DNA from: an uncultured Methylomonas sp.
GTDB taxonomy: Bacteria > Pseudomonadota > Gammaproteobacteria > Methylococcales > Methylomonadaceae
DNA: 64,000 nt
Reading direction: 5' to 3'
Assembly: GCA_936941155.1 (NCBI GenBank)
Contig: CAKZJE010000047.1
Location: 11,154 to 75,153 of the forward strand
The notes under the pieces were generated by a model. The model was not told where the DNA came from and did not search any database. It saw only the letters and a list, made by a program, of their open reading frames with translations. The position numbers and the translations under genes were made by a program. Of the stretch, positions 20,015 to 51,283 are shown piece after piece. Positions within the stretch are counted from its first letter, which is position 1. Each line of letters opens with the position of its first letter.

Positions 20015-20027
20015 TATTTTACGTTTC

Positions 20028-21096: not shown

Positions 21097-21107
21097 TATT
21101 TTTCGTT

Positions 21108-21170
21108 TCGTTTTTGGCTTTTAACGCAAGAGGCGGCGCAATATGTTTTACTATTGCGCCCTACCGCGCT
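21108..21170. repeat. Repeat family R5, copy 4
   Basis: ttttggcttttaacgcaagaggcggcgcaatatgttttactattgcgccctaccgcgc. Confidence 0.6.
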
Positions 21171-21582: not shown

Positions 21583-21655
21583 GGTTTAAAAATTAATTAA
21601 AAGGGTCGCAGTCAGCACGGTAGGGCGGATTGCAATCCGCCTTACGAGTTACGAG

Positions 21656-22009
21656 TTAAGGCACATCATCGGATTGTTTATCGCCACACTTTACTCCACT
21701 CTCAAAGGCATACCAATCATTCGCTACGAAAGATTTTAAGAGTTCTTTATCTTTTACTTTCCCTGAAGCATTCTTAGCGGAGATGATTACTTCACCTAGC
21801 TTTACAAACATGGAGGGATTAATAGCCTTAATAACCTCACTTAACGTAGAAACCTTATATTCTAAGTGTTTTAATGGGGATTTCGCGTCTTGTTTTGTTG
21901 GCGCATTCACGACCTCATCAACAAGTTGTCTAAGCTCTTTTAGTGTGCTGTCGTTCATAAGAACTCCTAATTTAATTAATACATAATACACGATTTTACA
22001 TATTATCAA
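21656..22009 (-). CDS. Hypothetical protein
   Basis: This is an ORF with no recognisable domain. Confidence 0.3.
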   Translation of the reverse strand: MIICKIVYYVLIKLGVLMNDSTLKELRQLVDEVVNAPTKQDAKSPLKHLEYKVSTLSEVIKAINPSMFVKLGEVIISAKNASGKVKDKELLKSFVANDWYAFESGVKCGDKQSDDVP

Positions 22010-22033
22010 GAGGCTGGATAATTTTTTACGAGT

Positions 22034-22510
22034 TTATTCGTCAATATCATCACAATATACATGTTCACCGCTATCAATTATTTCTACTTTCCATCCGTTT
22101 TTTGATTCAGCCAGGTTGACTTTAAACGGGATATATCCAATGTAGCCACCAAATTTATTTTTATAATTAACAAAACCACAATAAGTGATAGTAGTTATAT
22201 CCATAAATTTACAAACACTTTTATTTTTAGACCACTTAAAATGTGCTGAATACGGGTCATTTAATTTATTGCTTATATGTTTTTTTACTGCGTTTATTTG
22301 GCTTTTTGTTATAGGCTTTTCTGTGCAGACTTTCTCTGTAGGTCTAGTCTGAACTATAACTTTTGTTCTAACTATTTCCTTGTATTGAGTATTGTTGGGA
22401 GGCTCATCAGTATAATAAACCTCACCATTAGGAGCAACGTATCTATAAACATTACTTATCGCTATTTCTGGAAAAATCAAAGCAATTGTAATAAAAAGTA
22501 ATTTAATCAT
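22034..22510 (-). CDS. Hypothetical secreted protein (paralog of 21169-21582)
   Basis: It has a signal peptide and a conserved C-terminal domain shared with its paralog. Confidence 0.5.
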   Translation of the reverse strand: MIKLLFITIALIFPEIAISNVYRYVAPNGEVYYTDEPPNNTQYKEIVRTKVIVQTRPTEKVCTEKPITKSQINAVKKHISNKLNDPYSAHFKWSKNKSVCKFMDITTITYCGFVNYKNKFGGYIGYIPFKVNLAESKNGWKVEIIDSGEHVYCDDIDE

Positions 22511-22816
22511 TTTATGTTCCTTACCAATAGTTATTAATTAACTTTAATTATTTTTTATTTGTTTGATTTTATTCCATGCTGTCTATATTTGTTAATTCAT
22601 CTGGCGACACCAAAAAATTATCATACCATCCCTCATTATTATCTTAACGCTTTAAAAATACTTTTAAATTCAACTCTTTTGTTTAATTTAGCGTAAATTA
22701 AACAAACGATGTAAAAAATCAAAAAAGCTGATTTGCAATGGTTGCTTTTGTTGTTTTTAGGAGCTAAAGTCAATTATTGATTCAATTACGAATTCAATAA
22801 TAAAGGAGAAAAATAA

Positions 22817-22930
22817 ATGTTTAAATTCTTAGAGAAAGTGCTAGATAAATGTGGCTCTGGAACACTTATTAACATTATGTGTTTGAGCATTGCTTTAATA
22901 GCAATGATTATTTTACTAAAACAAAGTTAG
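22817..22930 (+). CDS. Small hydrophobic peptide (37 aa, MFKFLEKVLDKCGSGTLINIMCLSIALIAMIILLKQS)
   Basis: A strong RBS (aaaggagaaaaataaATG) precedes it, it has a single predicted TM helix, and it is followed by the hairpin ccacctttttt...aaggtgg. It was found manually. Confidence 0.3.
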   Translation: MFKFLEKVLDKCGSGTLINIMCLSIALIAMIILLKQS

Positions 22931-23133
22931 GGAAAACTAAAAATACCACCTTTTTATATTTTTAATGTGAGAAGGTGGCTTTACTATCCCATCGCTGCAT
23001 TTTGATTAGCCGCCGCGTAACTTCTGGTAAATTCAAAAACACTTCGCCTGAAACCCGCTAGGCGACTCTAACACAACGTTTCATCCTGAATCCGCGCCAC
23101 ATAAAACCCCGCGTGATAATTCGCAAAAGCCAC

Positions 23134-23355
23134 TTATGCTTTTAAAAACTCGTCAACACTCACATTGGCTTGTTTCAAAACCGCTTTTAGAGTTCCTTCT
23201 TTCAGCGTTTGATGATGCGGCAACGTTAAATACCGCCCGTCTTCACCATGTTTCCAAATCTCGTGACTGCCTTTTGCCTGTCGGTGTAACACAAAACCCA
23301 ACACATCTAGCTTGCGTGAAACATCCCGATAACTAAAACCTGATAAACGCCCCAT
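23134..23355 (-). CDS. hicA: HicA-family toxin (mRNA interferase)
   Basis: It shows the HicA/YcfA consensus (LGFVLHRQAKGSHEIWKH...). Confidence 0.8.
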   Translation of the reverse strand: MGRLSGFSYRDVSRKLDVLGFVLHRQAKGSHEIWKHGEDGRYLTLPHHQTLKEGTLKAVLKQANVSVDEFLKA

Positions 23356-23604
23356 TTAATAACCGACGACCAGCGCGTAATTTAATTTTTTCGGCACTGT
23401 CGGCAATTTATGCCATTCCTCACGCTTATCCTGCAAAATCAGTTTTGCTAAATCCTGAGCAATTTCAATTGTTTCAACTAAAGTTCGCCCTTCTGCTACT
23501 AAACCTTGAACATCAGAACTGGTAGCCAGATAGTAACTTTCACCATTTTCAACATGTTGTTCAATACTCAGTTTTATAATATGTTCCATAACATTTTCTC
23601 TCAT
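23356..23604 (-). CDS. hicB: HicB-family antitoxin
   Basis: It is an 82-aa protein of the UPF0150/HicB-like fold, immediately upstream of hicA. Confidence 0.65.
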   Translation of the reverse strand: MRENVMEHIIKLSIEQHVENGESYYLATSSDVQGLVAEGRTLVETIEIAQDLAKLILQDKREEWHKLPTVPKKLNYALVVGY

Positions 23605-23683
23605 TCATTTATAAATCAGGTCTACAGCAAAGTACAAATAAATCACTGCCCCATAAAACAAACCGGCTAAAAACCCCTTTTGC

Positions 23684-24088
23684 TTATAATTCCTTAAAGG
23701 GATTAATAATCAGCAACTTATTTTCAATTAATTGCCCATGCTGCATATCTTCTGAATACAACGTTGTGCAACTTGCCTCCAATGCGGTGGCAATAATCAA
23801 ACTATCGTAAAATGAAAACCGATACCGTTCCATTACTGTAATAGCTGAGATAACAGGTCTTGGCAACACAGCAACAACATCGCACTCCGCAATTAAGCGC
23901 ATTAAAATGGACTGCGTATCTTGCGGGGAAAATTTGAGCTTACGTTGCAGCGTATTGGCAGTTTCAGTTAAAACCTGTGTAGAAATAACCGGTTTTGCCG
24001 CGATAATTTTTAAAGCGAGCAGACGTTTATCGTCATCATCACTCACGCTATAAATGATAACGTTGGTATCAGCAAAGTTAGCGTTCAT
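23684..24088 (-). CDS. PIN-domain toxin (VapC-like), second module
   Basis: FADTNVIIY...D...E...SLIIATALE is a PIN signature. The start was trimmed to MNANFADTN. Confidence 0.6.
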   Translation of the reverse strand: MNANFADTNVIIYSVSDDDDKRLLALKIIAAKPVISTQVLTETANTLQRKLKFSPQDTQSILMRLIAECDVVAVLPRPVISAITVMERYRFSFYDSLIIATALEASCTTLYSEDMQHGQLIENKLLIINPFKEL

Positions 24089-24302
24089 TGGCTTCTTCGC
24101 GGTTAAACGTAAACTCTTGAAATCCGGTGCGATACGGTGCAAATGCGGTTTCAAGTTCGGCGACTTTGTCAACAGCAACAGCTTCAGTTTTGATGGCATA
24201 GCGTACTTTTAAATAGCCAATAAAATCCAAAACTTCGGCGCGTAAATTCTCCGGCAAGATTTGTGATTCGTGGTAAATCAGTTCGGCGGTATCAACTAAC
24301 AT
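24078..24302 (-). CDS. Putative antitoxin of the second PIN module
   Basis: This 74-aa ORF overlaps the PIN start. The start was chosen at MLVDTAEL. Confidence 0.4.
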   Translation of the reverse strand: MLVDTAELIYHESQILPENLRAEVLDFIGYLKVRYAIKTEAVAVDKVAELETAFAPYRTGFQEFTFNREEANER

Positions 24303-24494
24303 AATTATTTTCTCTTTATTATTGAGTTCAGGCGATTTGTAAGAAGTATAAATCACAGCCCCGTAAAACAAAACGGCTTAAAACCCTTCGGCGCATTATT
24401 GCTACGCCGTTTTTAACACATCATCTACATTGAGTTGCTTATAGATAAAAAACCGGATAACTTCAGCAGCATCCGGCTTTTTAACACCAACCTA

Positions 24495-24899
24495 TCAATC
24501 CTCCCGATAACACGCACTCGCACTCGCGGTTTCCCACAACACCACCTGATCGACATTAAAACCCTGCTGTTTAATATGCTGAAAAATCATTTTACTCAAC
24601 ACCTCAGCGGTCGGATGCTCCTCAATCGCCAAAAAACGCTCATTTTGCGCAATCAACATCGGAATAATCGGATCATTTTTATGCAGCAAAAAATTATGAT
24701 CTAAAACCTCATCCACAAAAGACTCAACACACGCCTTAATATCCGAAAAATCGCACACCATCCCTTGCTCATTCAGCTGCGCCTGTTTAATAGAAATCGC
24801 AGCCTTCACGCTATGACCATGTAAATTACGGCATTTGCCAGCGTGATTCATCAATCTATGACCGTAACAAAAATAAACTTCTTTAGTGATTATAAACAT
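24495..24899 (-). CDS. queD: 6-carboxy-5,6,7,8-tetrahydropterin synthase
   Basis: CxxxHGH and HGHS motifs are present (YFCYGHRL...CRNLHGHSV), consistent with the PTPS family. Confidence 0.8.
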   Translation of the reverse strand: MFIITKEVYFCYGHRLMNHAGKCRNLHGHSVKAAISIKQAQLNEQGMVCDFSDIKACVESFVDEVLDHNFLLHKNDPIIPMLIAQNERFLAIEEHPTAEVLSKMIFQHIKQQGFNVDQVVLWETASASACYRED

Positions 24900-24910
24900 A
24901 TTCTAACTAT

Positions 24911-25225
24911 TTAAAGGGAAAGGTAACCATCATCATGCAACACTGTCATACTGGCACTAATCACAAATGATTTGTCCTCCAAACTACGCACATTCACCAC
25001 TCTCACATGCGCTCGTAATGGCGGCGTGGCGGGGTGTTGCGATTGAATCGTCATCTCCAATTCATCATCGAGTTTTAATAATTTATTGGAAACAAAAGAA
25101 ACACCAGCCCCGCTTAATGTGGTACATCTACCTTTATAAACTTTATCGCTATTTAACAGCCGATATTCGATTTCGCAATCCACATTAATCCGAAAATACT
25201 CGCGCCTTTCATTAAACTCTACCAT
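24911..25225 (-). CDS. PilZ-domain protein
   Basis: It has RxxxR (RREYFRI) and a (D/N)xSxxG-like motif (LSGAGVSF). Confidence 0.6.
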   Translation of the reverse strand: MVEFNERREYFRINVDCEIEYRLLNSDKVYKGRCTTLSGAGVSFVSNKLLKLDDELEMTIQSQHPATPPLRAHVRVVNVRSLEDKSFVISASMTVLHDDGYLSL

Positions 25226-26640: not shown

Positions 26641-26765
26641 AACTCTTTATTATCAATGATTTTGTTATAAAAACTGTCAAACTATCTTGTGTAGATGCCT
26701 ATGCGTGAACGTAGTTCCGTTGTGTTTCAATGTCTCTACAGTATTACCCATTGAGTCAATCGCCA

Positions 26766-27472
26766 TGAACCATGAAGAGATTGTTTATAGCTTTAAATTA
26801 GAAACCGCAGAAATAAAGCAAGTTCATATCAGTTTAGAGCAAAACACCTTGAATCTTGTGCATCCAATTCCGCTGAAAAACTTACCCGCATGGACTCATC
26901 TTGACTTCAATCAATGCCCTAATTGCCCGTTAAAACATCGCCTCCATTGCCCGATTGCCGCGAATATTTCTGTGCTGGCAAGTTCCTTTACGCAGTATCC
27001 TTCTTATCAAAAATCCGAAGTTCATGTGCAAATGAACTCACGCAGCTGTGTGGAAACCACTGATGTGCAAAGCGCATTGAGTTCTATTTTAGGGATTTAT
27101 ATGGTGACTAGCGGCTGTCCTGTGATGGATAAATTACGCCCGATGGTGTATTTTCATTTACCCTTTGCTACGCCGTTAGAAACGCAATATCGTGCGATTA
27201 CCATGTATTTAGTGGCGCAATATTTGCGCAACAAACAAGGCAAAAAGCCTGATTGGGATTTAAAAGGCTTTATTAAAATGTATGCCGAAATTCAGAAAGT
27301 GAATTTTGCGTTTAGTAAACGCTTAAGTGAGATTGATGAAAACGCCACTAACAAATGCGCTTTGATTATTTTGGACGATATAGCGTCGTTGATTCACTTA
27401 AATTTTCAAATAAATGAAGAAATTCCGGCTGAATTAGAATCTATTTTTCAACATTTTTTGGATGAAATTTAA
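26766..27472 (+). CDS. Conserved hypothetical Cys-rich protein (CPNCP...HCP...SGCP), paralog 1
   Basis: It is about 55% identical to 27723-28448. The start was moved to MNHEE by alignment with the paralog. Confidence 0.5.
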
Positions 27473-27722
27473 AGGCAATTTCAAAAAAACAACCTGCTTA
27501 CAACTTCAGTATTTAGAGGCGCAACTATCTATATTATATTGCAAGCAAGTAATTGATTTATTATGATTTTTAGAAACGAAAAACCTTGCGTCTCTACGCT
27601 AAAAGCAACGTACTAGCAAAAGTTTGGACGATTTTTGTAGTCTAACACGGATGCTCACGCAATCACCGCCACCTTAAAATGTACGTTTACGCACTTATCA
27701 ATCGCTCTATTTTGAGTACATT

Positions 27723-28448
27723 ATGATGCCTGAAGAAAATACCCATTATGAATACCGCTTTACCCTTGACTCAGGGGAAACCAAAACTATTGAGGTTTGC
27801 TTAAATACAGAAACACTGGCGATTATTTGCCCGCCTGCTGATGCGCCACTGCCAGACTGGACGCGGCTTGAATACAGCCAATGCCCAAATTGCAATTTAT
27901 CGGCTAAAACACACACGCATTGTCCGATTGCTGTGAATATTTCAACCGTTGCCGATGCTTTTAGCGAACTCAGTTCTTTTCAGCAGGCAAAAGTTTCTGT
28001 GCAAGGCAATTCTCGACTGTTTATTAAAACTACCGATATTCAGACCGCATTAAGTTCAATTTTAGGAATCTATATGGTGACTAGCGGCTGTCCGATTATG
28101 GATAAATTGCGTCCGATGGTGCGTTTTCATTTGCCATTTGCCACATCGCTGGAAACGCAATATCGCGCGATTTCCATGTATTTAGCCGCTCAATATTTGC
28201 GCTATAAAAAAGGCAAAAAGCCCGATTGGGCGTTAAAAGGTTTTGTGAAAATGTACGAAGAAGTGCACAAAGTTAATGTGGCGTTTACCAATCGCCTCAA
28301 TGCCGTTGATAAATGTGATGCCAATAATAGTGCGCTGATTGTATTAGATAGCTGCGCTGAGTTGATTAATTTTAATTTTGAAATGGATGAAGAAGTGCCC
28401 AAAGAATTGGAAGGAATTTTTAAGCCGTTTACAAATAGCGCACTTTAA
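27723..28448 (+). CDS. Conserved hypothetical Cys-rich protein, paralog 2
   Basis: It is a tandem paralog with conserved CxxC, HCPIA, MVTSGCP and RPMVxFHLPFAT motifs. Confidence 0.55.
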   Translation: MMPEENTHYEYRFTLDSGETKTIEVCLNTETLAIICPPADAPLPDWTRLEYSQCPNCNLSAKTHTHCPIAVNISTVADAFSELSSFQQAKVSVQGNSRLFIKTTDIQTALSSILGIYMVTSGCPIMDKLRPMVRFHLPFATSLETQYRAISMYLAAQYLRYKKGKKPDWALKGFVKMYEEVHKVNVAFTNRLNAVDKCDANNSALIVLDSCAELINFNFEMDEEVPKELEGIFKPFTNSAL

Positions 28449-28578: not shown

Positions 28579-29175
28579 ATGCAAACAACCATTAAAGTCT
28601 GGGATATTCCCTTGCGCATTTTTCATTGGCTGCTGGTGGCAGGGTTTAGCGTCGCTTATATTACCGAAGAAGATTTTTTAAACATCCATATTTGGGCTGG
28701 TTATCTAGTTATCGGACTGCTGGTTTTTCGCCTGATTTGGGGATTTATTGGCAACGAATATTCCCAATTTAAAAACTTTCTATGCAGTCCAGCGGAAAGT
28801 TTTGCCTATTTCACACAAGTATTAACCCGCACCAACAAACGCTATATTGGACACAATCCTGCTGGAGCAGCCATGATTGTGATGATGTTGGTGAGTATTT
28901 TAATCACATCGCTCACAGGTTTAGTATTGCTGGAAGTCATTTCAATTCCGATTGGCGCACAAATCAATTCTGCGTTTTTAAAGTGGATTATGGAATCAGG
29001 TTACGGTCATTCTGTCGAAGAAATTCACGAGTTTTTTGCCAATTTCAGTGTGCTTTTAGTTGTAGCGCATATTGCGGGTGTGGTTTTTGAGAGTATTTCA
29101 CACAAAGAAAACCTAGGCAGAGCCATGATGACAGGCGAAAAACGCAGTGAAGACGCTCCTTCTGATGGCGCATAG
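28579..29175 (+). CDS. Cytochrome b561-family protein (CybB-like)
   Basis: It has four TM helices with conserved His (RIFHWLL, IHIWAGY, VAHIAG). Confidence 0.7.
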   Translation: MQTTIKVWDIPLRIFHWLLVAGFSVAYITEEDFLNIHIWAGYLVIGLLVFRLIWGFIGNEYSQFKNFLCSPAESFAYFTQVLTRTNKRYIGHNPAGAAMIVMMLVSILITSLTGLVLLEVISIPIGAQINSAFLKWIMESGYGHSVEEIHEFFANFSVLLVVAHIAGVVFESISHKENLGRAMMTGEKRSEDAPSDGA

Positions 29176-29421: not shown

Positions 29422-30435
29422 ATGAAAATTTGGTTTAACAAAAACTTCTCCAGTGTTGCGTTTATTCTGGCTTCATTACAAAAAAACAGCGCGGTTACAA
29501 CGCTTTTTTCACACACTCACGCCGTTGCACATCAGCATTTAGCCGATGAATTTATTTATGAACCCGAAAACGCGCCCGATTATCTGACGTTTTGTTTAAA
29601 CACTTGCCAGCAATATCAAGTGGATGTTTTTTATCCTTGGCGGCATTTTGCGTTGCTGTATCCGCATAGACACCGATTTTCGGAGTTAGGTGTGAAAGTT
29701 ATTTTTCCTTGCTCAGATGTTGCGTTTACTTTGCTTGATAACAAAGCCTTGTTTTATCGGCATTTAGCAGAAAAACAGATTGCCGTGCGGATGCCGTTGT
29801 TTGCGACCGCAAGTTCAAAAAAAGAATTTATTTCACAATATCAATCGCTTAGAAAAAGCACAGATAAACTTTGCATGAAACCGAGTGTGTCGATTTATGC
29901 AGCGGGTTTTAAAATTATTCACGATGAACCTGATTATGATGCGTGGAAAGCCTTGATTCATGGCAAAGATCAATATGAAATCGCTTATTCGCAGTTATTA
30001 GGGGTGTTGCCGGATGATTTTTCAAAAGAAATGATGCTGTTGGATTTTTTGGCAGGTGATGAATATAGCCACGATATTTTGTGCCATGCGGGAAAAATTA
30101 TCGCAGGCACAATTCGGCAAAAACATAATGAGCATGAAAAATATCAATCGTTGATTGCCTACCCTGAAATTGTGCAAATGAGCGAATTGTTGGTTGCGGA
30201 GTTTAATTTGAGTGGATTTATTAATATTCAATATCGTGATGATAAACATGGAGTGCCATTTTTGTTGGAAATTAATCCGCGTATTTCCGGCGGTTTTCCC
30301 AAAATTGTGTTGGCGGGGATTGATTATGTCGATTTGTTTGTGAAGATGGTGAGCGGGCAAACAATTTGTGCTGCGGACATTCAACAAGAGGTTGGGGTGA
30401 AGGTGGGGAAAAGTTCGGATTATGTGAAGGTTTAA
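29422..30435 (+). CDS. ATP-grasp-fold enzyme
   Basis: The C-terminal FINIQYRDDKHGVPFLLEINPRISGG is typical of an ATP-grasp Mg/ATP-binding loop. Confidence 0.6.
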   Translation: MKIWFNKNFSSVAFILASLQKNSAVTTLFSHTHAVAHQHLADEFIYEPENAPDYLTFCLNTCQQYQVDVFYPWRHFALLYPHRHRFSELGVKVIFPCSDVAFTLLDNKALFYRHLAEKQIAVRMPLFATASSKKEFISQYQSLRKSTDKLCMKPSVSIYAAGFKIIHDEPDYDAWKALIHGKDQYEIAYSQLLGVLPDDFSKEMMLLDFLAGDEYSHDILCHAGKIIAGTIRQKHNEHEKYQSLIAYPEIVQMSELLVAEFNLSGFINIQYRDDKHGVPFLLEINPRISGGFPKIVLAGIDYVDLFVKMVSGQTICAADIQQEVGVKVGKSSDYVKV

Positions 30436-31981: not shown

Positions 31982-32120
31982 GTAATGGCTTGTTAAAAAT
32001 CTTTGCAACTAATCAGGCAAAGAATAAGTTCTCTGACAGTGGCTTTAGGAGTACAAACGTTGCGTTTGTACTCCTTTTTTTTACCTAAAAATTTTTTTGA
32101 ATTTAATTAGTTGAGGCAAA

Positions 32121-32235: not shown

Positions 32236-33069
32236 TTATCGCTGCACATACACCGCGCCTTGAAATTGCACTTCTTTAAATTCTTTTCGATTGCCCCACA
32301 GCGATTCGGTTGCGCCGACTAATAACGCCCCCTCCGGCGTGAGCATTTTCACCATTGCTGATAAAACTTTGCTGCGCACATCCGCAGAAAAATAAATCGT
32401 CACATTGCGGCACAAAATCAAATCGAAACGACCTAAATGTGAAAAATCGCGGGTCAAATTAATATTTGCAAAATGCACCCGCAGACGAATATTAGGTCGC
32501 AACACCCATAAATTTTGCCCTTGATGCTCAAAATATTTATTGCGGCGCGTTAGCGATAAACCGCGATTAATCTCAAAATCGTTATAACGCGCATGGCGGG
32601 CTGTTTCTAAAGCCGCTTGTGAAATATCCATTGCGTGAATTGAAAAACAACGCGCTAAAGCAGCGGCGTTTTGGCGTTGGCACATTTCATCAATCAACAT
32701 CGCCAGCGAATAAGCCTCTTGCCCTGTGGAACAGCCGGCAATCCATATTCTAATTTCTTGCGCCCCTTTTTCGAGTTTTTTGAACAACGCCGGCAAAATG
32801 GATTTTTCCAAAGCATTCCAGCAAGAATCATCACGAAACCACAAGGTTTCGTTTGTGGTCATTAAATTAATCACCGTAGGCAGCAGTCTTTCGGGTTCAA
32901 ATTGCAAACGAGAAAACAATTGCCCAAAACTATGCAGCCCTAAACTGGTCGCAAAATCGCTTAAGCGCGTTTGCACTAAATAATCCTGATCGTCTTGCAA
33001 ATTGATGCCGCATTGCTCTTTTAAGAGTTGGCTAATTTGTCTAAATTCGTGTTTAGTAATTGCTTGCAT
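32236..33069 (-). CDS. cheR: Chemotaxis protein methyltransferase
   Basis: It has CheR N- and C-terminal domains (SAM-binding GCSTGQEAYS). Confidence 0.85.
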   Translation of the reverse strand: MQAITKHEFRQISQLLKEQCGINLQDDQDYLVQTRLSDFATSLGLHSFGQLFSRLQFEPERLLPTVINLMTTNETLWFRDDSCWNALEKSILPALFKKLEKGAQEIRIWIAGCSTGQEAYSLAMLIDEMCQRQNAAALARCFSIHAMDISQAALETARHARYNDFEINRGLSLTRRNKYFEHQGQNLWVLRPNIRLRVHFANINLTRDFSHLGRFDLILCRNVTIYFSADVRSKVLSAMVKMLTPEGALLVGATESLWGNRKEFKEVQFQGAVYVQR

Positions 33070-33078
33070 ACGTCAGTT

Positions 33079-34185
33079 TTATAAAGTTAATTGGTTGATG
33101 CGGTTGCCAAGCTCGTTTAACGAAACGACTTCATCGGCTAATCCTGCTTCAAAAACACTGCCGGGCATTCCCCAAACCACTGAAGAATCTTGGTCTTGCA
33201 CCAAACATTTCGCGCCGTTGCGTTTTAACATCCGCACGCCTTCTGTGCCGTCGCGTCCCATGCCTGTCATCACCACCGCTAAGATATTGCCGTTAAACGT
33301 GGCTGCGACTGAGCGAAATAATACATCAACAGAAGGGCGGCAATTATTCACGGGCGGGGTTTCATTCACAGCCAAACAGTAATCGCCATCAAGATGGCTG
33401 CGTAACACTAAATGTTTGCCACCGGGCGCAATATAAATTCGACCGGGCAGTAGTTTTTCGCCACCTTTAGCTTCGCTGACTTGCAGCGGGGTTTCTTCAT
33501 TGAGTTTTTTGGCTAAAGATTCGGTAAACATTGGTGGCATGTGTTGCACAATGATAATCGGGCAGGGCATGGCGGGATTGAGTTTTGGAATTAATTGATC
33601 CAAGGCTTTCGGGCCGCCGGTGGAAACTCCAATCACGATTAAGTCAATTTTGCCTTTGCGACTGCGCAAGGGCTGTGCAGTTGTTTCAACAATTCTTTGG
33701 CGTGCGACAAGGGTAGGTGTTGCTGTTTGCAGAGTTTCCGTGCGCAGCGGAGGAGTGCGACTCAATAAGGCATATTTTTTAGTCTGCACCAGACTAATCA
33801 AAGGCTGTAGATAATTGACTAATTCAGCAATTCCTTGTTCTGGACTGCTGACTTTAGGTTTTGCCACAAAATCTAACGCGCCGATTTGTAATGAGCGCAA
33901 AGTTTCGCGACTGCTTTTCAAATCAAAGCTGCTAATCATAATCGCTTCAATCGCAGGATGCTGTTGTTTGATTTGCCGGAGTGTTTCCACGCCGTCCATG
34001 TCGGGCATTACCACATCCAACAACACTAAGTCAGGTTCTAACATATTGATTTTTCTAATAGCAATCTGTCCAGAAGCGGCTGTGCCAATACATTCTGCAT
34101 CTGCGATTTTGTCGATAACCGACATCAAAATTTGTCTATAGCTAATACTGTCATCGACAACGAGAACTTTTACTTTGTCATTCAT
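33079..34185 (-). CDS. cheB: Protein-glutamate methylesterase/response regulator
   Basis: It has an N-terminal receiver (VLVVDDS...DVVMPDMDG) and a CheB methylesterase domain (GVSTGGP, MTGMGRDG). Confidence 0.9.
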   Translation of the reverse strand: MNDKVKVLVVDDSISYRQILMSVIDKIADAECIGTAASGQIAIRKINMLEPDLVLLDVVMPDMDGVETLRQIKQQHPAIEAIMISSFDLKSSRETLRSLQIGALDFVAKPKVSSPEQGIAELVNYLQPLISLVQTKKYALLSRTPPLRTETLQTATPTLVARQRIVETTAQPLRSRKGKIDLIVIGVSTGGPKALDQLIPKLNPAMPCPIIIVQHMPPMFTESLAKKLNEETPLQVSEAKGGEKLLPGRIYIAPGGKHLVLRSHLDGDYCLAVNETPPVNNCRPSVDVLFRSVAATFNGNILAVVMTGMGRDGTEGVRMLKRNGAKCLVQDQDSSVVWGMPGSVFEAGLADEVVSLNELGNRINQLTL

Positions 34186-34271
34186 TATTTAAGTGAGGGA
34201 GGGGCGAGAAAACAAATAGTTTTGAGGTGAACAGGATGAATTTGTGTGGGCGATTAAGCAAAAACAGTTTT

Positions 34272-34340
34272 TTGTAGGTTCGGATTTATCCGAACAATGC
34301 GAAAAATGCGATTAATGCGAATAAATTCGCCCCTACAAAA
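34272..34340. repeat. MITE-like element family R3, full copy (TIR tttgtagg / cctacaaa, internal hairpins)
   Basis: ttgtaggttcggatttatccgaacaatgcgaaaaatgcgattaatgcgaataaattcgcccctacaaaa. Confidence 0.6.
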
Positions 34341-34407
34341 ATAAAAATTATTTTTCAATAGCTTAGGTGTATTTATTTGCGTGGAGACGCGATTAATCGC
34401 ATCGCTA

Positions 34408-34923
34408 CTAATCTTTTAATTTGAAGCTTTCATTTTTTAAATTGCAAACACAATTAATTAACTGCTCAATTGCAAGAATAATAATAAATTGGTTTTGTTG
34501 TTGAATCATGCCGGAAATAAACTCTTCTTTTTCATTCGCGACATTTGGCAAGGGCGGCAAAATTTCTTTTTCCTCCACATTCAATGTTTCGCCCATTTTA
34601 TCAACCAAAATTGCCAGCGGGTCTTTAATCGCAATCTCGGTATTAAAAGTTTTGCGGGTTAATTTATTCAGCCGCGTTAATTCCGCTTTGGTTTTTAAAA
34701 TAATCAAGGCGCGTTGCGCTAACGGCACATTGGTTTTTTGCTCTAAAAAAAACTGCGGATCCATCACGGTTAAAATCTGTCCGCGCAAATTCATAATCCC
34801 AATTAAATATTCAGGAGCTTCAGGCACGGGGCTGACTTCATGCAGCCGCCCAATTTCTTTGGCTAATAAAATATCAATCGCATAACGCTCTGATCCTAAA
34901 TAAAAACTGATAAATTGGCGCAT
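34408..34923 (-). CDS. cheW: Chemotaxis coupling protein
   Basis: It is a single CheW-like domain of 171 aa. Confidence 0.85.
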   Translation of the reverse strand: MRQFISFYLGSERYAIDILLAKEIGRLHEVSPVPEAPEYLIGIMNLRGQILTVMDPQFFLEQKTNVPLAQRALIILKTKAELTRLNKLTRKTFNTEIAIKDPLAILVDKMGETLNVEEKEILPPLPNVANEKEEFISGMIQQQNQFIIILAIEQLINCVCNLKNESFKLKD

Positions 34924-34953
34924 GTTTTCTTCCTGTGTGTAAATCTGTCGAAT

Positions 34954-37900
34954 TTATTCTGAATAACGTGCCAATGTTTTTAGCACCAGCTCTTTGTCCA
35001 ATTTAACCAGCCATTCATTAAATCCGGCTTTTTTTCCATCTGCGATGGTTTGTTCATCATTCAAGGTGGTCAAGGCAATCACAGGCAATTTATCCCAACG
35101 TGGATTGGCGCGAATATTTTTCACCATTTCTCGCCCGTCCATAATCGGCATTTCTATATCACTTAACACCAAATCAAAATCCTGCTGATGCAGCGTATCT
35201 AAGCCTTCGCGTCCATTGTTTGCGGTGGTGACTTTATACCCGCCCGCCTCGATACACTCTTTGATCACTTTCATAAAAAATGGCGTATCTTCCACTAATA
35301 AAATATGTTTGTTTTTAGCTTTTTCAGCATTGATTTCTAGTTTTTCCACGCTATCTGGCTCGCCGGCTTCTAAAATACTGTGCAAATCTAACATCAAGGT
35401 GATTTTTCCATCTAACAGCATTGAGCCTAAAATACCGGAGTTTTTCATGGCGGTATTTTCCAGTTTGATGACCGCGCTTTTGGTATCAACAACCCGATTA
35501 ATCAATAGCGCGACCGGAATTTTTGTGCGTTTAGGGATAATAATATTGGCAATTGCTTCATAATTATTGGGTTTTTGCACCGGCAAGCAGTTTTCTAAGC
35601 GCAATAAACGCATTTGTTCGCCGCGATATTCAATGTATTCATTGCCAGCTATAAATTGAATTCGCCTAACATCCAAACTATCAATCCTCCGAATCCACGA
35701 CAGTGCTAGGGCAAAATGTTCTTCAGTGTTATTGTCAAAAATCAATAACGATTGCGGCTCTTGCTCCACTTTGCGTTGCTGTGAGGAGCTGTTATTGTCT
35801 TTTTGCAGCTCTGTGTAAGTGAGTTGATTTTTATGGATATAGCCTTGTACATCAATAATCATGGCAATTGCACCATCACCTAAAATACTAGTGCCGGAAA
35901 AGTTTTTCACCTGCCGGAAATATTCGGGCATTGGTTTGACCACAATTTCTTCACTGCCTAAAATTTGATCAACGATGACGGCTACGCGATTATTTTCTGC
36001 TTTAATAATCAAAATATATAAAGGATTTTCGATACTTAGCTGAGGATTTTCTTCAGTGGCGGTAATCATATTTAAACTTTCTGCCAAAGAAATCAGCGGT
36101 AGAAAACTTCCGCGTAGCGATAACATTCGTTGCCCGCGCACTTTTCCCACTTGTTTGGCGTAATCATCGGCTTCTAACAGCACCATTTCTTCTAAATTGC
36201 TTTGTGGAAAAGCAAAACGGCAATTTTGTACGCTGACAATCAGGGCAGAAATAATCGCCATTGTTAGCGGGAGCGTCATTGTGATGCTGCTCCATTTGCC
36301 TAATTGCGAGTTAATGTCGATGCTGCCGCCAATTTGTTCAATATTGGTTTTCACCACATCCATGCCAATGCCGCGTCCTGAGACGGAGGAAACCGTTTTG
36401 GCAGTGGAAAATCCGGGCGTGAAGATTAAATTCATTTTTTCTTTCGCGCTCATTTTTTCCATGATGTCGGCGGTGATAATGCCGCTTTCTAAGGCTTTGT
36501 GCGCAATGAAATCGGGGTCAATACCTTTGCCGTCATCACTGAATTGAATCACGACTTGCCCGCTTTCATGGAAGGCTTTTTGCAAAATCGTGCCGCACGG
36601 CGGTTTGCCTTGTTTAATCCGTTCTTGTGGCGTTTCGATGCCGTGATCTGCCATATTTCGAATAATATGAGTGACAGGATCACTTAACGATTCAATAATG
36701 GTTTTGTCTAATTCAACATCCGCGCCTTCTGTAACCAGCTCTATTTGTTTGCCTAAATCTTTTTCTAACTGTCTGATTAAACGAGGGAATTTATTAAAAA
36801 TTACCCCGATAGGCTGCATTCGTGTGCCCATAATTTCTTCCTGCATTTCAGTGGTAATGCGGTTGAAATTATGCAAAATTACTTTTAAGCCGGGGGTTTG
36901 CACAATCAGCGGTTCACAGAGTCTAAACACTTGATTACGAACTAAAACTAATTCGCCTGCTAAATCAATCAGTTTATTGAGACGTTTTACATGCACCCGA
37001 ATGGTTTCTTCCGTTTCGGAGTGACTAATAATGGCAGGTTCTTCTTCAATAATGGGCTTAGCAAGAGAGGTTGTCGCAGGAGGTGACGGAATGGACGTTA
37101 GGTTTTCGGTGCTTTGTGTGGCGACCGCAACTGTTTCTTCTATTGCGGCATTGTGTTCGCTTTCGTGGGCATCTAGGTTTTTCAGTTGCTTTAGGCGATG
37201 ACATAATTGCTCAATATCAATGCCGTTATCGCCTTGATGTTGTTCAATTAATTGAATTAAACAGTCATAGCCTTCCAGCAAGGTATCAATATATTTTCCT
37301 TCCATCACCACTTGCGCGGCTTTTGCCAACGCGAGAATATCTTCCATGATGTGCGTGAGGCGCGAGATTTTTTCCAAGCCTAAAAAACTTGCGCCGCCTT
37401 TAATGGTATGCACATTGCGAAACAACTCATTGAGTTGCTGCATATTGCCGGGATTCGCTTCCAATGCGAGCAACGCGGTTTCTATGCGTGGCACACATTC
37501 CCGCGCTTCTTCAATAAAACTGCTTAATAAATCATGTTGTGCGAGTTTTTCTTCCTCTGAAAATTCATTTTCAGAAAAAACAAAAGGATTCAGATTGGCT
37601 TGGTTTTTAAAATCGGTAAAGTTTTCTTGCTGATTGATTGGCGTAGTTTCAGGAAAGTCATCCTGTTCTTCAATGAATTCTGGCTCAGAAAATTCGTTAG
37701 AGGGTTCAAAAAACTCAGCTTCGCTACGATGGGATTCTGCTATTTGTGCAAAGGCATTGAAATGCTCATTAGGGCGTTCAATGAGCTGATTGAGTTTCTG
37801 GCATTCCTGTTCTACATTGATATTATTACTGTTTTGCGGATCATCAATCATTTGCACCAGTCGGTCTTGACTGGACAGCAGCACATCAATATGTTGGTGG

Positions 37901-38148
37901 GTGAGCTGTAATTTGTTGCTGCGAGCTAGCGACAATAAGCTTTCCATGCTATGCGATAAGGTGCTGATATTGTGCAAGCCAAAAAAACCCGCGCCGCCTT
38001 TGATGGTATGCACACTGCGAAATAATTCATTCAGTACGGTTTGCTCATCGGGTTTATTTTCCAAAGATAATAAACTTGCCTCAATCACAGGCAGATGTTC
38101 GCGCGCTTCCTCAATAAAGGAGTTGATTAAATCATCACTGTCGTCCAC
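34954..38148 (-). CDS. cheA: CheA-family hybrid histidine kinase with two N-terminal HPt domains, HATPase, CheW-like domain and C-terminal receiver (WspE/ChpA-like)
   Basis: Two HPt motifs are present (LFRSVHTIKGGAGFFGL and LFRNVHTIKGGASFLGL). It also has an HATPase_c domain, a CheW-like domain and a C-terminal REC (LLVEDTPF...LSDIEMPIMDG). Confidence 0.85.
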   Translation of the reverse strand: MDDSDDLINSFIEEAREHLPVIEASLLSLENKPDEQTVLNELFRSVHTIKGGAGFFGLHNISTLSHSMESLLSLARSNKLQLTHQHIDVLLSSQDRLVQMIDDPQNSNNINVEQECQKLNQLIERPNEHFNAFAQIAESHRSEAEFFEPSNEFSEPEFIEEQDDFPETTPINQQENFTDFKNQANLNPFVFSENEFSEEEKLAQHDLLSSFIEEARECVPRIETALLALEANPGNMQQLNELFRNVHTIKGGASFLGLEKISRLTHIMEDILALAKAAQVVMEGKYIDTLLEGYDCLIQLIEQHQGDNGIDIEQLCHRLKQLKNLDAHESEHNAAIEETVAVATQSTENLTSIPSPPATTSLAKPIIEEEPAIISHSETEETIRVHVKRLNKLIDLAGELVLVRNQVFRLCEPLIVQTPGLKVILHNFNRITTEMQEEIMGTRMQPIGVIFNKFPRLIRQLEKDLGKQIELVTEGADVELDKTIIESLSDPVTHIIRNMADHGIETPQERIKQGKPPCGTILQKAFHESGQVVIQFSDDGKGIDPDFIAHKALESGIITADIMEKMSAKEKMNLIFTPGFSTAKTVSSVSGRGIGMDVVKTNIEQIGGSIDINSQLGKWSSITMTLPLTMAIISALIVSVQNCRFAFPQSNLEEMVLLEADDYAKQVGKVRGQRMLSLRGSFLPLISLAESLNMITATEENPQLSIENPLYILIIKAENNRVAVIVDQILGSEEIVVKPMPEYFRQVKNFSGTSILGDGAIAMIIDVQGYIHKNQLTYTELQKDNNSSSQQRKVEQEPQSLLIFDNNTEEHFALALSWIRRIDSLDVRRIQFIAGNEYIEYRGEQMRLLRLENCLPVQKPNNYEAIANIIIPKRTKIPVALLINRVVDTKSAVIKLENTAMKNSGILGSMLLDGKITLMLDLHSILEAGEPDSVEKLEINAEKAKNKHILLVEDTPFFMKVIKECIEAGGYKVTTANNGREGLDTLHQQDFDLVLSDIEMPIMDGREMVKNIRANPRWDKLPVIALTTLNDEQTIADGKKAGFNEWLVKLDKELVLKTLARYSE

Positions 38149-38157
38149 GCATAACTC

Positions 38158-40191
38158 CTAGTAAACGCCTTTGGCATTGAGAGCGACACCGTATTGCTTG
38201 TCGGTTTTTAAAATATGATCTAACAACCAATCTTTTAAAAACTCTAAAATACTTTCCGCCACTTCATGGACATTTTTGGTTTTTAATTGTGCTTGAAACA
38301 TTTGCACTTTATTCACAAAAGCCGCGTGAATGGATTTATGCGATTCCAGCTCTGGCCAATGATTATCTGTCAGCAGTTTTTCTTCGTAGCCAAAATGGAA
38401 CACGGTGTAATCGGCTAAATAATTCACAATATCTTCCATCGTTTCTTTGCTGATTTTATTTTTTACGCCGTAATCAAGCCGATTAATTAATTCCGCCAAA
38501 ATGCTATGTTGTCTGTCGATTTCTTTAATGCCAACGCTATAAATGGCTAAGTCCCAAACGATTAAAGGTGTATTAGCATCCCGCGTTTTGCCGCTTGTAG
38601 TATCCGCGTGTTGTTTGCTGTTTTGTGGAATTAGGGGGCTGACAGAGCTTTGTGCTGTTCTGTTGTGACTAAAAAAACTGTTATCTTGTTGATAAGCTTG
38701 TTCTTTAAAATTAAAACTGTTTGCTGATTGCACTAATCGCTGTGCCATAGCGGACAATTCGCTGGCATTTTGGTGACTTTGGGTGATTTCCTGCGTCATT
38801 TTTCCTAAAGTGGAGCGAATTGAATGAATATTGCTGTTCACTTTTTTGATGCTGCTCGACACTTCGCTACTGGAATTCGCTGCTTCTTTCACACCGGCAG
38901 CGGCTTCTTCCAAAGCGCGTGCGGAACTACGCGAGGCTTGCGAGGCTTCTGCCGCAGAGCGAGTAATTTCTTTTAGTCCTTTGGTAGCTTCTTGCAAATT
39001 CAACACAGATTCTTTGCTGGCATTCGCAATCCCATCAACTGCTTCTGTAATGGTGTCGGCGGAAGAGCTTTGTTGTTCTACTGAAAAATCAATGGCTTGG
39101 TTGATTTCAGCAACTTTATTAATTACTGTATTAACCGCTTGCGTGTGTTTTAACGCTTCAGCCGCATAATTTTGAATTTGTTCAATTTGGTCGGCAATTT
39201 CATTATTTGCCTCGGCGGTTTGTTGCGCTAAATCTTTAATCTCGCCCGCGACCACCGCAAAACCTTTACCCGCTTCGCCTGCACTGGCGGCTTCAATTGT
39301 CGCGTTTAAAGCTAACATGTTGGTTTGTCCGGCAATGCTGTCAATTAACTTCACCACGCGCCCGATTTTTTTGGCTGTTTCGCTTAGCTGATTCATGGTG
39401 GTGAGCGTTTCTTGTGCACTGGCTGTGGCATCTGCGGAAATTCGCATGGCATTTTGGGCATTTTTCGCAATTTCTGACATCGAAACCGACATTTTTTCGG
39501 CAGAATTTGCGACCGTATTAATATCTTGGGAGATGCGGTCAAAACTGTGATTAATTCCCACCATATTGGTTGAGGCTTCTTCAGCACTGGCGGCGACAGT
39601 ATTAATATTGGTACTTAATTCATAAACAGACGCGCTGACTGAGCTTACATTGCCGGAGGCTTCTTCAATTGAGGTTGCCATGATGTTTACGTTAAAGGCA
39701 ATATGTTCAGAAGAGGTGGCGGTTAACGCTAAACGGCAGTCAACATCGTTGGCACTTTCTGCAATTGAAGCAGAAGATTGTTTCAGTTTTTCAGAGGCTT
39801 GCGACACATCGGACACAGAATGATTAACGCGCTTAATCACACTGGACACTTTATCAACAAAGCTATTTAGCACATCTGCAAGTTGTCCTGCCTCACCGCT
39901 TTGGTCTGAAACTAAGCGTTTATTAAAGTCACCCCGCGCAATTTCTTCAGTGCTTACCACCAGTTTGCTAATAGACTGATAATGACGACTTAAATTTTGA
40001 TGAATAATATACGCCAACAAATAAGCCGCGATTGTGCCTAATACAAACACAGGGATTGCAGCTAATAAAAAATCAGCCATTACAAACGGCGCAGGGCTTG
40101 TTAATGCCATGACCGAAAAAGCCAAGGTGAGTAACCCTAAAGTAAAGCCTATAACGGTAATGAACAGAGAGTGTTTATTATATGAATACAT
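38158..40191 (-). CDS. Methyl-accepting chemotaxis protein with minimal periplasmic loop and C-terminal hemerythrin (HHE cation-binding) domain (DcrH-like)
   Basis: It has two N-terminal TM helices and an MCP signalling domain. The C-terminal 135 aa ([22 protein letters not shown]...HFGYEEKLL...HKSIHAAF...DWLLDHI) match the bacteriohemerythrin iron-ligand pattern. Confidence 0.8.
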
Positions 40192-40212
40192 GGAAATCCT
40201 ATAGTTTTACGT

Positions 40213-41490
40213 TTAGCCTAAAATAACTTGGTTTCTGCCGTTTTTCTTTGCTTCATAAAGCAGTTTGTCTGCTTTTGTTAGTGCCGATTCTAAGTTTTCT
40301 TCTAATGTAGTACAAACGCCAATACTGGCTGTGATTTTTAAAATGAGGTTATCAGACAACTGAATTGGATTTTCTTCAATTCGTGCGCGTAAACTTTCAA
40401 AAATAGAACCGGCTTCTTCTTGCGAAGTATTGGATAATAAAAAACCAAACTCTTCACCGCCAAAACGTGCCACTAAATCTCCGGCTCGAAAGCTTCCGTT
40501 TAAAAGCTGCCCCATTTTTTTTAATACAACATCACCTGCATCATGTCCGTAGGTATCATTCACACGTTTAAAAAAATCAATATCAATTAAAGCAACAATA
40601 CATTGTTTTTTAGATTTATAAGCGCGGTTGAAAAGTTTTTCGCCGACTTCAAAAAAATGTCGCCGATTATAAAGACCGGTTAAAAAGTCACGGCTAGCAA
40701 TAAATTGCAGTTCTTTAATATAGCCTAATAAATCCATATTTTGATTAATGCGACAAAAGAACTCTTCTTCTAAAAAAGGTTTATTAATAAAATCGCTGCC
40801 GCCAATTTTTAAAAATCGTGCGGATAATAAATTATTGCCATAAGTGGACATGCCAATAATTGCCATATCTTGTTTGCTGTAAATGGCTCTGAGTTTTTTG
40901 GTCAGCTCAAAGCCATCCATTTGTGGCATATTAAAATCGGTAATCACCAACATAATATCTTTGTGTTCATGGGCAATATCGAAAGCCTGTTTACCATTTT
41001 CAGCTTCTAATACCATAAAACGATAAATAGACAATAAACGCTTAATATGTTTTCTAGCTGTTCTGGAATCATCCACAATTAAAGCTTTAATACGGGTATT
41101 TCTATTCAGTTGTTTTAATAATAAAACAATGTATTCAATATTAGCGGGGCATTCTTTTAGCACATAATCAACAATGCCTTTGCCCAGCATTCTGTCGCGT
41201 AAATCATCATCAAACTTTCCAGTAAATACAATGGCTGGAATATTATAATTTAAAACATAATCAACCACTTCGCCGTCTGGAGCATCAGGCAAATTTAAAT
41301 CTAATAAACTAGCAAAAAAGGTGTATTTCTTTGATTCGATTAATGCGATTAATTCAGCATAAGTTTCAGCAATCACAACTCTAAATTCAGAGTTTGCTTC
41401 CACACTGGTTTTAAGAATACGAGCAAATACTTTGCTATCTTCTACAACCAAGATGGTTTTTTTACTATTATCATATTGTTGATCAGTCAT
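40213..41490 (-). CDS. Response-regulator diguanylate cyclase (REC-REC-GGDEF, WspR-like)
   Basis: It has two receiver-like domains and a GGDEF domain with an intact GGEEF motif and an upstream RxxD (RAGD) I-site-like motif. Confidence 0.85.
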   Translation of the reverse strand: MTDQQYDNSKKTILVVEDSKVFARILKTSVEANSEFRVVIAETYAELIALIESKKYTFFASLLDLNLPDAPDGEVVDYVLNYNIPAIVFTGKFDDDLRDRMLGKGIVDYVLKECPANIEYIVLLLKQLNRNTRIKALIVDDSRTARKHIKRLLSIYRFMVLEAENGKQAFDIAHEHKDIMLVITDFNMPQMDGFELTKKLRAIYSKQDMAIIGMSTYGNNLLSARFLKIGGSDFINKPFLEEEFFCRINQNMDLLGYIKELQFIASRDFLTGLYNRRHFFEVGEKLFNRAYKSKKQCIVALIDIDFFKRVNDTYGHDAGDVVLKKMGQLLNGSFRAGDLVARFGGEEFGFLLSNTSQEEAGSIFESLRARIEENPIQLSDNLILKITASIGVCTTLEENLESALTKADKLLYEAKKNGRNQVILG

Positions 41491-41622
41491 AACTTAAAGA
41501 TCGCCCATTTTTTGCCATTTTTGATTATAGTTAGCTTCAAAATTGATTGATTTTTTATTTTTAATAAGAGGAGATTGTTCAGTAATTGAAGAGGATAAGC
41601 AAAGTTATTGAGCAATTACTTT

Positions 41623-42258
41623 TTAGAGCGTTAATTCTTTATTGATAATTTGTTTTAAGGCTTTTAGCATTTTAAAAATGGCAAAAATATCATTGCCATC
41701 CGCACTATAATTATTACTAATACAATATTCATTGCCTTGTAACACTATAAAGCTCCACCCCAAGCCAATGATAACCAAACCATAAATAGGCAATTTGTTG
41801 TTATTCATTTCACGCGCAACCAGCATTGCTGCCAAAACTTGTCCATCTGGAGTGCCTTGATTTTCAACGTGACGTTTATATTCGTGCAAACAGAAATAGG
41901 GGACATGCGGATTGCGTGTTCCCGTTGCAATCATGCCATCAACCATTCCAGAAAGTTGATATTCACCGATAACGCCGGATAAAGGTCGTTCTAAAAAATA
42001 GCCAATTCGTTCATCATCAATATTAGCCGTGACAATCATAGGGCTAATGAATTTATTTTCTAACTCAACTTCATTCCAAGCTTTACCACCTCTAATCAGA
42101 GTTTTTTGCAAATTTAATATATATTGTTTTTCAAATTCACTGATTTCTTCGTGATTGCTTTCCCACTGAACTAATAAGTCAGATTGCCAGATTTGTTTTA
42201 ATCCAAAAGCCTCATCTAAGCCATCTAAATCCCACTCTTTAAAAGTCGCTGTTTTCAT
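41623..42258 (-). CDS. Hypothetical protein (211 aa)
   Basis: This is a long ORF with no recognisable family. A D...EYK spacing is weakly reminiscent of PD-(D/E)xK. Confidence 0.4.
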   Translation of the reverse strand: MKTATFKEWDLDGLDEAFGLKQIWQSDLLVQWESNHEEISEFEKQYILNLQKTLIRGGKAWNEVELENKFISPMIVTANIDDERIGYFLERPLSGVIGEYQLSGMVDGMIATGTRNPHVPYFCLHEYKRHVENQGTPDGQVLAAMLVAREMNNNKLPIYGLVIIGLGWSFIVLQGNEYCISNNYSADGNDIFAIFKMLKALKQIINKELTL

Positions 42259-51198: not shown

Positions 51199-51232
51199 GG
51201 AATGCGTACGAAACAACTTATGCAAGTTTATT

Positions 51233-51283
51233 TTGTGTAGGTGCGGATTTATCTGCACTGTGCGAATGAATTTGCACCTACAG
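51233..51283. repeat. MITE-like element family R3
   Basis: ttgtgtaggtgcggatttatctgcactgtgcgaatgaatttgcacctacag. Confidence 0.55.

Follow-up and report, generated by a model that had tools for sequence, protein, structure and literature searches.

We suggest that six consecutive genes in a stretch of DNA from an uncultured Methylomonas sp. (contig CAKZJE010000047.1; 64,000 nucleotides, hereafter the window) encode a self-contained chemosensory pathway that does not serve motility. Its receptor would sense by way of a di-iron hemerythrin in the cytoplasm, the O2 or redox state of which it reads, and its output would be the synthesis of the biofilm signal cyclic di-GMP (c-di-GMP). We consider this function fairly probable, and infer it from domain content and synteny. 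The genes are co-oriented on the minus strand (32236-41490) and encode, as read from the list of open reading frames (ORFs) and from Pfam, a response regulator with two receiver (REC) domains and a GGDEF domain, a methyl-accepting chemotaxis protein with a hemerythrin tail (Hr-MCP), a hybrid CheA, CheW, CheB and CheR. An initial annotation of the window had placed six minus-strand genes at exactly these coordinates, and the domain identities it assigned were borne out by Pfam and, for the hemerythrin, by NCBIfam. Its description of the gene ends as overlapping or near-abutting held only in part: packing is tight, with spacers of 21, 9, 30, 222 and 9 nt in the order diguanylate cyclase (DGC), MCP, cheA, cheW, cheB, cheR, but there are no overlaps, and the cheW-cheB spacer is long.

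The proposed input is a membrane-anchored MCP of 677 amino acids (aa) (38158..40191, -), in which Pfam recognizes HAMP, MCPsignal (E 2e-33) and Hemerythrin (5e-14) domains. Hydropathy windows place two hydrophobic segments at residues ~9-31 and ~41-63, forming a transmembrane hairpin (residues ~9-63; 40003..40167, -) with a loop of only ~9 residues, and hence essentially no periplasmic sensor domain, as had been proposed from the start; Pfam matched no 4HB domain in the receptor, and in the family alignment the short loop is common to all Methylococcaceae members. The HAMP domain (73-115) and a long signaling bundle (117-495) follow (38707..39975, -; Pfam and motif inspection). The bundle runs from residue ~117 to a hairpin tip at E306 and back to ~495, amounting to ~27 heptads per arm and ~54 in total, and carries four methylation-consensus-like motifs, at 173, 201, 257 and 370, in which the candidate methylation sites are E176/E177, E204/E205, Q260/E261 and Q373/Q374. 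Beyond a variable linker of 48 residues (496-543), the protein ends in the hemerythrin domain (544-672; 38176..38562, -). The initial annotation had likened this domain to that of DcrH, and the NCBIfam bacteriohemerythrin model (E 6e-33) and an alignment to the DcrH hemerythrin structure 2AVK (E 1.6e-20) agree with the Pfam match. The H-HxxxE-HxxxH-HxxxxD iron ligands, on which that annotation had staked its claim, are all in place: H562 (IDRQH), H599 and E603 (HFGYEE), H618 and H622 (HKSIH), and H659 and D664 (DHILKTD) stand in register with 2AVK, seven of seven, and are invariant in 8/8 members of the family alignment.

Two further hemerythrin-tailed receptors were seen in other settings. 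An orphan Hr-MCP in a Methylococcaceae metagenome-assembled genome (MAG; L006:4151-6118) is 58% identical to the window receptor but lacks 15 residues of the HAMP domain and differs at the hairpin tip (…NEMVQSVSVAGDADKGFAVVK-EIK…). Its neighbors are genes for Mla and TPR proteins and for a hybrid histidine kinase, and it may be a paralogue in decay. A 35%-identical HAMP-MCP-hemerythrin gene (L103:4417-7347) begins 25 nt after a gene for a REC protein with a degenerate GGDEF domain that lacks the GGDEF motif; REC-HD-GYP and REC-HisKA genes are nearby, and there is no CheA, CheW, CheB or CheR in ~5 kb upstream or 10 kb downstream.

The proposed output is the REC-REC-GGDEF protein (425 aa; 40213..41490, -; Pfam GGDEF E 1e-44), a response regulator and predicted DGC that takes the place of CheY, as the initial annotation had observed: the cluster contains no single-domain CheY gene. 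Its first receiver (D64; ~41116-41457, -) and second receiver (D185; ~40753-41082, -) precede a GGDEF domain (~40228-40698, -) with a GGEEF motif (344-348) and an RxxD I-site (RAGD, 335-338), the latter five residues before the former, as in PleD. Both receiver aspartates, RxxD and GGEEF are kept in 7/7 orthologues. Solved structures that it matches include the REC-REC protein 3LUF (E 7e-48), PleD (2e-42) and WspR (2e-33). Among NCBIfam models, CbrR matches over the full length at 268 bits against an equivalog cut-off of 600, and PleD at 219 bits against a cut-off of 474. Regulators of the PleD, CbrR and 3LUF type share the tandem receivers and the GGDEF domain with an I-site, but they are partnered with ordinary histidine kinases and lie outside che operons, whereas the window cyclase is encoded inside one. 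The second receiver of PleD lacks the phospho-acceptor aspartate; in the window cyclase both receivers keep it. A distant lineage (L037:8738-11640) has a REC-REC-GGDEF gene, 42% identical, directly after genes for CheY and for a soluble MCP that ends in a zinc-binding CZB domain, a second case in which this cyclase family lies beside a chemoreceptor bearing a C-terminal metal-binding sensor.

The other four genes encode core chemosensory proteins. The hybrid CheA (1064 aa; 34954..38148, -; Pfam, including a piecewise scan, and PDB CheA alignment) comprises, all on the minus strand, Hpt1 (H47; 37846-38133), Hpt2 (H247; 37270-37533), P3 (36829-37008), P4 (36262-36681), P5/CheW (35833-36246), a second CheW-like domain (residues 809-928; 35365-35724; E 5e-10) and REC (D997; 34999-35304); Pfam found no P2 domain. 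In the alignment to PDB CheA sequences, the histidine of each Hpt domain is present, as are the G1 and G2 boxes and the REC aspartate. The two Hpt domains and the receiver claimed by the initial annotation are therefore there, both Hpt domains having been confirmed when CheA was scanned in pieces, but the extra CheW-like domain had been missed. CheW (171 aa; 34408..34923, -; Pfam CheW 1.4e-25) is followed by the methylesterase CheB (368 aa; 33079..34185, -), with a REC domain (D57) and a CheB_methylest domain whose Ser/His/Asp catalytic motifs (VSTGG, QHMPP and GMGRDG) are intact by alignment to 6YMZ and 1A2O. The last gene encodes a prototypal CheR methyltransferase (277 aa; 32236..33069, -), in which Pfam finds CheR_N and CheR only, without a TPR extension.

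The same arrangement recurs elsewhere. Protein searches and contig look-ups recovered the order DGC, Hr-MCP, CheA, CheW, CheB, CheR, with short spacers, in at least five further loci: an NCBI assembly of Methylococcaceae type (L001), a Logan assembly (L002), a Methylococcaceae MAG (L004), the cultured methanotroph Methylomagnum ishizawai (L017; GCA_900155475.1, contig FXAM01000003.1, ~190.1-199.0 kb), and a JGI metagenome contig that follows the same order until it ends after cheW (L022). Two short contigs (L005 and L024) hold partial copies. The initial annotation had allowed that the MCP might prove unrelated to the GGDEF protein in homologous genomes; in all seven of these loci the Hr-MCP gene lies between the DGC gene and cheA. 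The flanks differ from copy to copy, with RnfH and TerD genes in L001, toxin-complex genes and an M4 peptidase gene in L002, a sigma-54 activator gene and a gene of an extracellular contractile injection system (eCIS) in M. ishizawai, and, in the window, purL and an unknown ORF upstream and a phytase-like gene downstream. That the cassette recurs amid mostly unrelated flanks argues that receptor, kinase and cyclase move together as a single unit. The sole shared neighbor is an ATPgrasp_Ter gene on the cheR side, found in the window (29422-30435, +) and in L001 (13092-17169), which may be the remnant of a shared ancestral neighborhood; L001 has four TerD-family genes there as well. Public data hold ~25-40 clusters (at 90% identity) of each protein, nearly all metagenomic, and the closest homologues with named sources come from Methylovulum, Methylococcaceae and Methylomagnum, which, taken with the G+C content of ~40%, suggests an uncultured member of the Methylococcales as the source of the window.

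Several features support the reading of the cluster as a dedicated non-motility pathway: it has no CheY gene, its CheA lacks P2 and combines multiple Hpt domains with a REC, its response regulator is multidomain, and its receptor is far longer than the 40-heptad (40H) type. Multidomain response regulators are a hallmark of pathways for alternative cellular functions (ACF), a class whose definition (PMC3447774) the cluster matches in having such a regulator, in its freedom from flagellar or pilus genes, and in the absence from it of CheY, CheZ, CheC, CheD and CheV; by Pfam, its che genes are the core set only. CheAs that combine multiple Hpt domains with a REC belong in ~93% of cases to the ACF or type IV pili (Tfp) class (PMC10782961). 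Judged by gene content, ACF membership fits every feature examined. Receptor length governs which receptors mix in an array, and the WspA homologue is of the 40H type (PMC11253619); the ~27 heptads per arm of the window receptor set against 40H thus argue for an insulated array.

We propose that the pathway would work as follows. The long-bundle (~54 heptads), membrane-anchored receptor, devoid of a periplasmic sensor, would assemble with CheW and the hybrid CheA into a separate array. Binding of O2, or auto-oxidation of the diferrous to the diferric form, would shift receptor conformation near the membrane-proximal adaptation region and thereby alter CheA autophosphorylation. Phosphoryl groups on the Hpt domains would pass to the REC-REC-GGDEF protein, which would dimerize and make c-di-GMP, limited by feedback through its RxxD I-site. 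The C-terminal REC of CheA would act as a sink for phosphate, which is what such domains have most often been found to do (PMC10782961). CheR would methylate and CheB demethylate the receptor, and with this adaptation the pathway would report a change in O2 or redox state and not its absolute level. If VcBhr-DGC is a guide, c-di-GMP synthesis would be favored when the sensor is in its reduced, low-O2 state.

Hemerythrin domains are documented sensors of O2 and redox state in DcrH, VcBhr-DGC and Bhr-HD-GYP (PMC9388753; PMC8846402). In VcBhr-DGC of Vibrio cholerae and Bhr-HD-GYP of Ferrovum a hemerythrin controls c-di-GMP turnover by O2 or redox state, as we propose here, but these are one-component proteins with the hemerythrin fused to the enzyme, whereas in the cassette a full chemosensory relay with methylation-based adaptation would stand between the two. 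It is conceivable, if rather unlikely, that pathway and output are as we describe but that the hemerythrin senses NO, peroxide or oxidative stress, or iron, so that c-di-GMP would report nitrosative or oxidative stress or iron status. The seven-ligand set is generic to the hemerythrin fold, characterized bacterial hemerythrin sensors act largely through redox state and not through reversible O2 binding (PMC9388753; PMC8846402), and NO and redox had also been named in the initial annotation. What inclines us towards O2 is that the closest solved relative is the O2-reactive DcrH domain, with an identical ligand pattern, and that the hosts are methanotroph-type bacteria, for which O2 would be a key substrate.

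The comparison with DcrH of Desulfovibrio vulgaris also raises the prospect of an aerotaxis-type motility module, in which CheA would signal to a CheY encoded elsewhere and the REC-REC-GGDEF protein would be unrelated or merely engaged in cross-talk. DcrH is the best solved match and shares with the window receptor the HAMP and MCP signaling domains and a C-terminal hemerythrin in which all seven ligands align; but DcrH possesses a periplasmic domain and its signals are presumed to enter flagellar chemotaxis, whereas the window receptor has no such domain and sits within a cassette with a c-di-GMP output. We know of no report of a dedicated CheA-DGC operon tied to DcrH. A role in anaerotaxis is presumed for DcrH (PMC13401364), an Hr-MCP gene in SAR324 adjoins fliM, and relatives of the cyclase are orphan regulators elsewhere. 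We nevertheless regard a motility module as improbable, more so than a different ligand. The DGC gene is co-oriented with the receptor gene, lies 21 nt upstream of it and is kept in every complete copy of the cassette even though the flanks change; moreover, the 64-kb window contains no flagellar genes, and the larger ORFs examined in its flanks are non-motility genes.

The system to which the cassette was initially compared is Wsp of Pseudomonas aeruginosa (WspA-F and WspR; ACF class), in which an array with a hybrid CheA-REC, CheW, CheB and CheR likewise acts on a response regulator that is a DGC, and the product is c-di-GMP and not motility. The label "Wsp-like" therefore stands as a functional analogy, that of a chemosensory array acting on a DGC, but not as a statement of membership. 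WspA has a periplasmic 4HB_MCP domain and is of the 40H type, whereas the window receptor has no periplasmic domain, a C-terminal hemerythrin and ~54 heptads (PMC11253619). Wsp has two CheWs (WspB and WspD), the cassette one, plus the extra CheW-like domain within CheA; WspC is a CheR-TPR protein (PMC3447774), the cassette CheR a plain one of 277 aa. CheAs of the WspE type have a single Hpt, P3-P5 and a REC in ~690-770 aa, as against 1064 aa with two Hpt and two CheW-like domains here; among the gammaproteobacterial ACF CheAs listed in the supplement of a paper on CheA architecture, including those of Methylococcus, Methylomonas and Methylovulum, one Hpt and mostly ~690-770 aa are the rule. 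WspR is REC-GGDEF, compared with REC-REC-GGDEF here, although the two are alike in a predicted active GGDEF domain with an I-site, GGEEF and RxxD being intact in the window cyclase. Orthology to the surface-sensing Wsp system of Pseudomonas, with only the receptor swapped, is very improbable despite the shared logic of MCP, CheW, hybrid CheA-REC, CheB, CheR and a REC-GGDEF output, given the second receiver of the output protein, a CheA/W/B/R core that lies nearest to clusters linked to STAS and PP2C proteins, and receptor type, CheW number, CheR without TPR, CheA architecture and gene order (wspA-B-C-D-E-F-R as opposed to DGC-MCP-CheA-CheW-CheB-CheR), which rule out canonical orthology.

Identity with the F7 stage-1 system of the Aer2/STAS type, which consists of STAS, cheY, cheA, two cheW, an aer2-like receptor, cheR, cheD and cheB (PMC7184735), was also rejected, since cheY, cheD and a PAS-heme receptor are all missing from the window cluster. 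A cluster in a Thalassotalea MAG (L016:4849-15440), first considered as a Wsp-like comparator, was dropped because its gene order (cheY-cheA-cheW-cheW-MCP-cheR-?-cheB) is F7 stage-1-like; it ends in a REC-GGDEF gene, and may be another independent coupling of a chemosensory system to a DGC.

A number of points weigh against the dedicated O2/redox-to-c-di-GMP pathway that we favor. Gene adjacency does not prove phosphotransfer, and the REC of CheA itself could be the terminal acceptor. Neither the ligand, among the candidates O2, NO, H2O2 and iron status, nor the sign of the response can be read from the letters of the DNA. The nearest relatives of the cyclase beyond the cassette-linked clade (the latter at ≥65% identity) are 56-61% identical, and include Psychromonas and metagenomic proteins; those with a readable context are stand-alone regulators encoded between folA and apaH-ksgA-pdxA-surA, with no che genes. 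Two Hr-MCP genes, that of the 58%-identical orphan in L006 and that of the Hr-MCP-CheA pair in Ca. Parabeggiatoa (L018), have no adjacent upstream DGC. Lastly, the 222-nt cheW-cheB spacer contains a structured repeat, such that co-transcription of the adaptation genes is not assured.

Outside the cassette, the next-nearest CheAs are those of SAR324, an unclassified bacterium and Desulfobacterales (L019-L021), which show 44-54% identity across the kinase core and the C-terminal region, and each of which has two Hpt-like N-terminal matches. Their genes lie in clusters with the order STAS, CheA, CheW, (MCP), CheB, CheR, REC, REC-SpoIIE-HATPase_c_2, without a GGDEF gene. The same clusters supply the nearest outgroups for CheW, CheB and CheR as well, with 33-54% identity versus 24-35% for the F7-like Thalassotalea cluster, and the best MCP matches lacking a hemerythrin come from the same lineages. 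They differ from the cassette in having a partner-switching output (an anti-sigma antagonist plus a PP2C phosphatase/kinase) and MCPs without hemerythrin. The three clusters, at ~9700-19000 in each contig, have a CheA that also carries a REC, and in L020 and L021 they end in CheY and REC-SpoIIE-HATPase_c_2 genes; they look like a conserved, apparently uncharacterized cluster type that connects chemosensory input to partner switching. In Ca. Parabeggiatoa, a 52%-identical Hr-MCP with a periplasmic domain is encoded beside a 62%-identical CheA, with no DGC gene upstream. No close CheA turned up in the plasmid database, where the best match was ~35% identical.

With its Che core nearest to STAS/PP2C clusters and its cyclase nearest to stand-alone regulators, the cassette looks like a modular re-assembly. 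In what appears to be the simplest reading, the long-bundle MCP associated with a CheA/W/B/R core gained a hemerythrin tail, and in the Methylococcales branch the partner-switching output looks to have been exchanged for a REC-REC-GGDEF regulator. Taken jointly with the proposed function, this leads us to a more tentative suggestion, which we put at somewhat short of an even chance: that methanotroph-type Gammaproteobacteria built a dedicated, adapting sensor of O2 change for c-di-GMP control from a partner-switching-type core whose STAS/PP2C output was lost and to which a hemerythrin receptor and an orphan-family REC-REC-GGDEF cyclase were added, the long receptor insulating the array from other chemosensory systems.

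The remaining features of the locus can be described more briefly. An AT-rich region of 132 nt ahead of the DGC gene (41491..41622, -) is a candidate operon promoter region, with a perfect TATAAT ~30 nt before the start codon; a consensus scan listed no full sigma-70 match for it. At the other end, a 13-bp GC-rich hairpin flanked by an A-tract and a T-tract, one to each side (32047..32075), between the cheR stop codon and a convergent plus-strand gene, is a candidate bidirectional terminator. The unusually long cheW-cheB spacer (34186..34407, -) contains a compound palindrome (~34270-34337), and its predicted RNA fold has a z-score of -3.0. In relatives the same junction measures just 0-95 nt by gene coordinates, which suggests that the spacer reflects an insertion resembling repetitive extragenic palindromic (REP) elements and not a conserved part of the system. 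The palindrome (34270-34337, -) reads TGTAGG-GCGAATTTATTCGC ... TCGGATAAATCCGA-ACCTACA, and a diverged second copy lies between convergent genes at ~51221-51282 (-). Rfam had zero matches anywhere in the window, and hence none to a c-di-GMP riboswitch.

ORF211 (41623-42258, -), which encodes 211 aa between purL and the operon, was considered as a seventh gene but discarded, because none of the other loci has a homologue of it near the cassette and it matches no Pfam or NCBIfam family. It was found only in near-identical contigs, and by eye a D…EYK stretch recalls PD-(D/E)xK nucleases. Elsewhere in the window, whose G+C content is ~40%, a tandem pair of DUF6901 paralogues precedes a cytochrome b561 gene (26687-28448, +, and 28579-29175, +), a 748-aa dCache-HAMP-nucleotidyl cyclase (59068-61314, +) represents another second-messenger sensor, and a low-GC segment (0.34-0.39; 18000-25000) holds only ORFs shorter than ~175 aa.

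Full-text searches on hemerythrin, chemosensory and Wsp systems, c-di-GMP and methanotrophs returned no description of this unit, in agreement with the initial impression that the architecture had not been reported. Reviews from 2022 list DcrH, Bhr-DGC, Bhr-HD-GYP and a P1B-5 ATPase as the only characterized hemerythrin sensors, and place chemosensory systems that modulate c-di-GMP in the ACF and Tfp classes, with Wsp as the ACF example discussed (PMC8846402; PMC9388753). The modules of the cassette are all familiar; it is the way they are combined, along with the evidence that outputs were swapped and a sensor of defined chemistry, that makes the cassette useful for experiments.

Chemosensory control of c-di-GMP is, to our knowledge, understood almost only through Wsp, the stimulus of which is still ill-defined. 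The sensor of the cassette receptor, a di-iron hemerythrin, is chemically defined and spectroscopically tractable, and so would make signaling from stimulus to c-di-GMP through a chemosensory array directly testable; the presence of the cassette in the cultured M. ishizawai makes genetics and biochemistry feasible. The cassette also provides a physiological context for hemerythrin-tailed MCPs, so far studied only as isolated domains, and its apparent assembly from three sources illustrates modular swapping of inputs and outputs in chemosensory evolution. If our reading is true, no earlier chemosensory pathway would have had its second-messenger output driven, with methylation memory, by a defined gas or redox cofactor inside the cell, and the cassette would clearly exemplify how chemosensory classes swap outputs in nature. 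It suggests that, for methanotrophs living at oxic-anoxic interfaces, changes in O2 could set the decision between an attached and a motile life.

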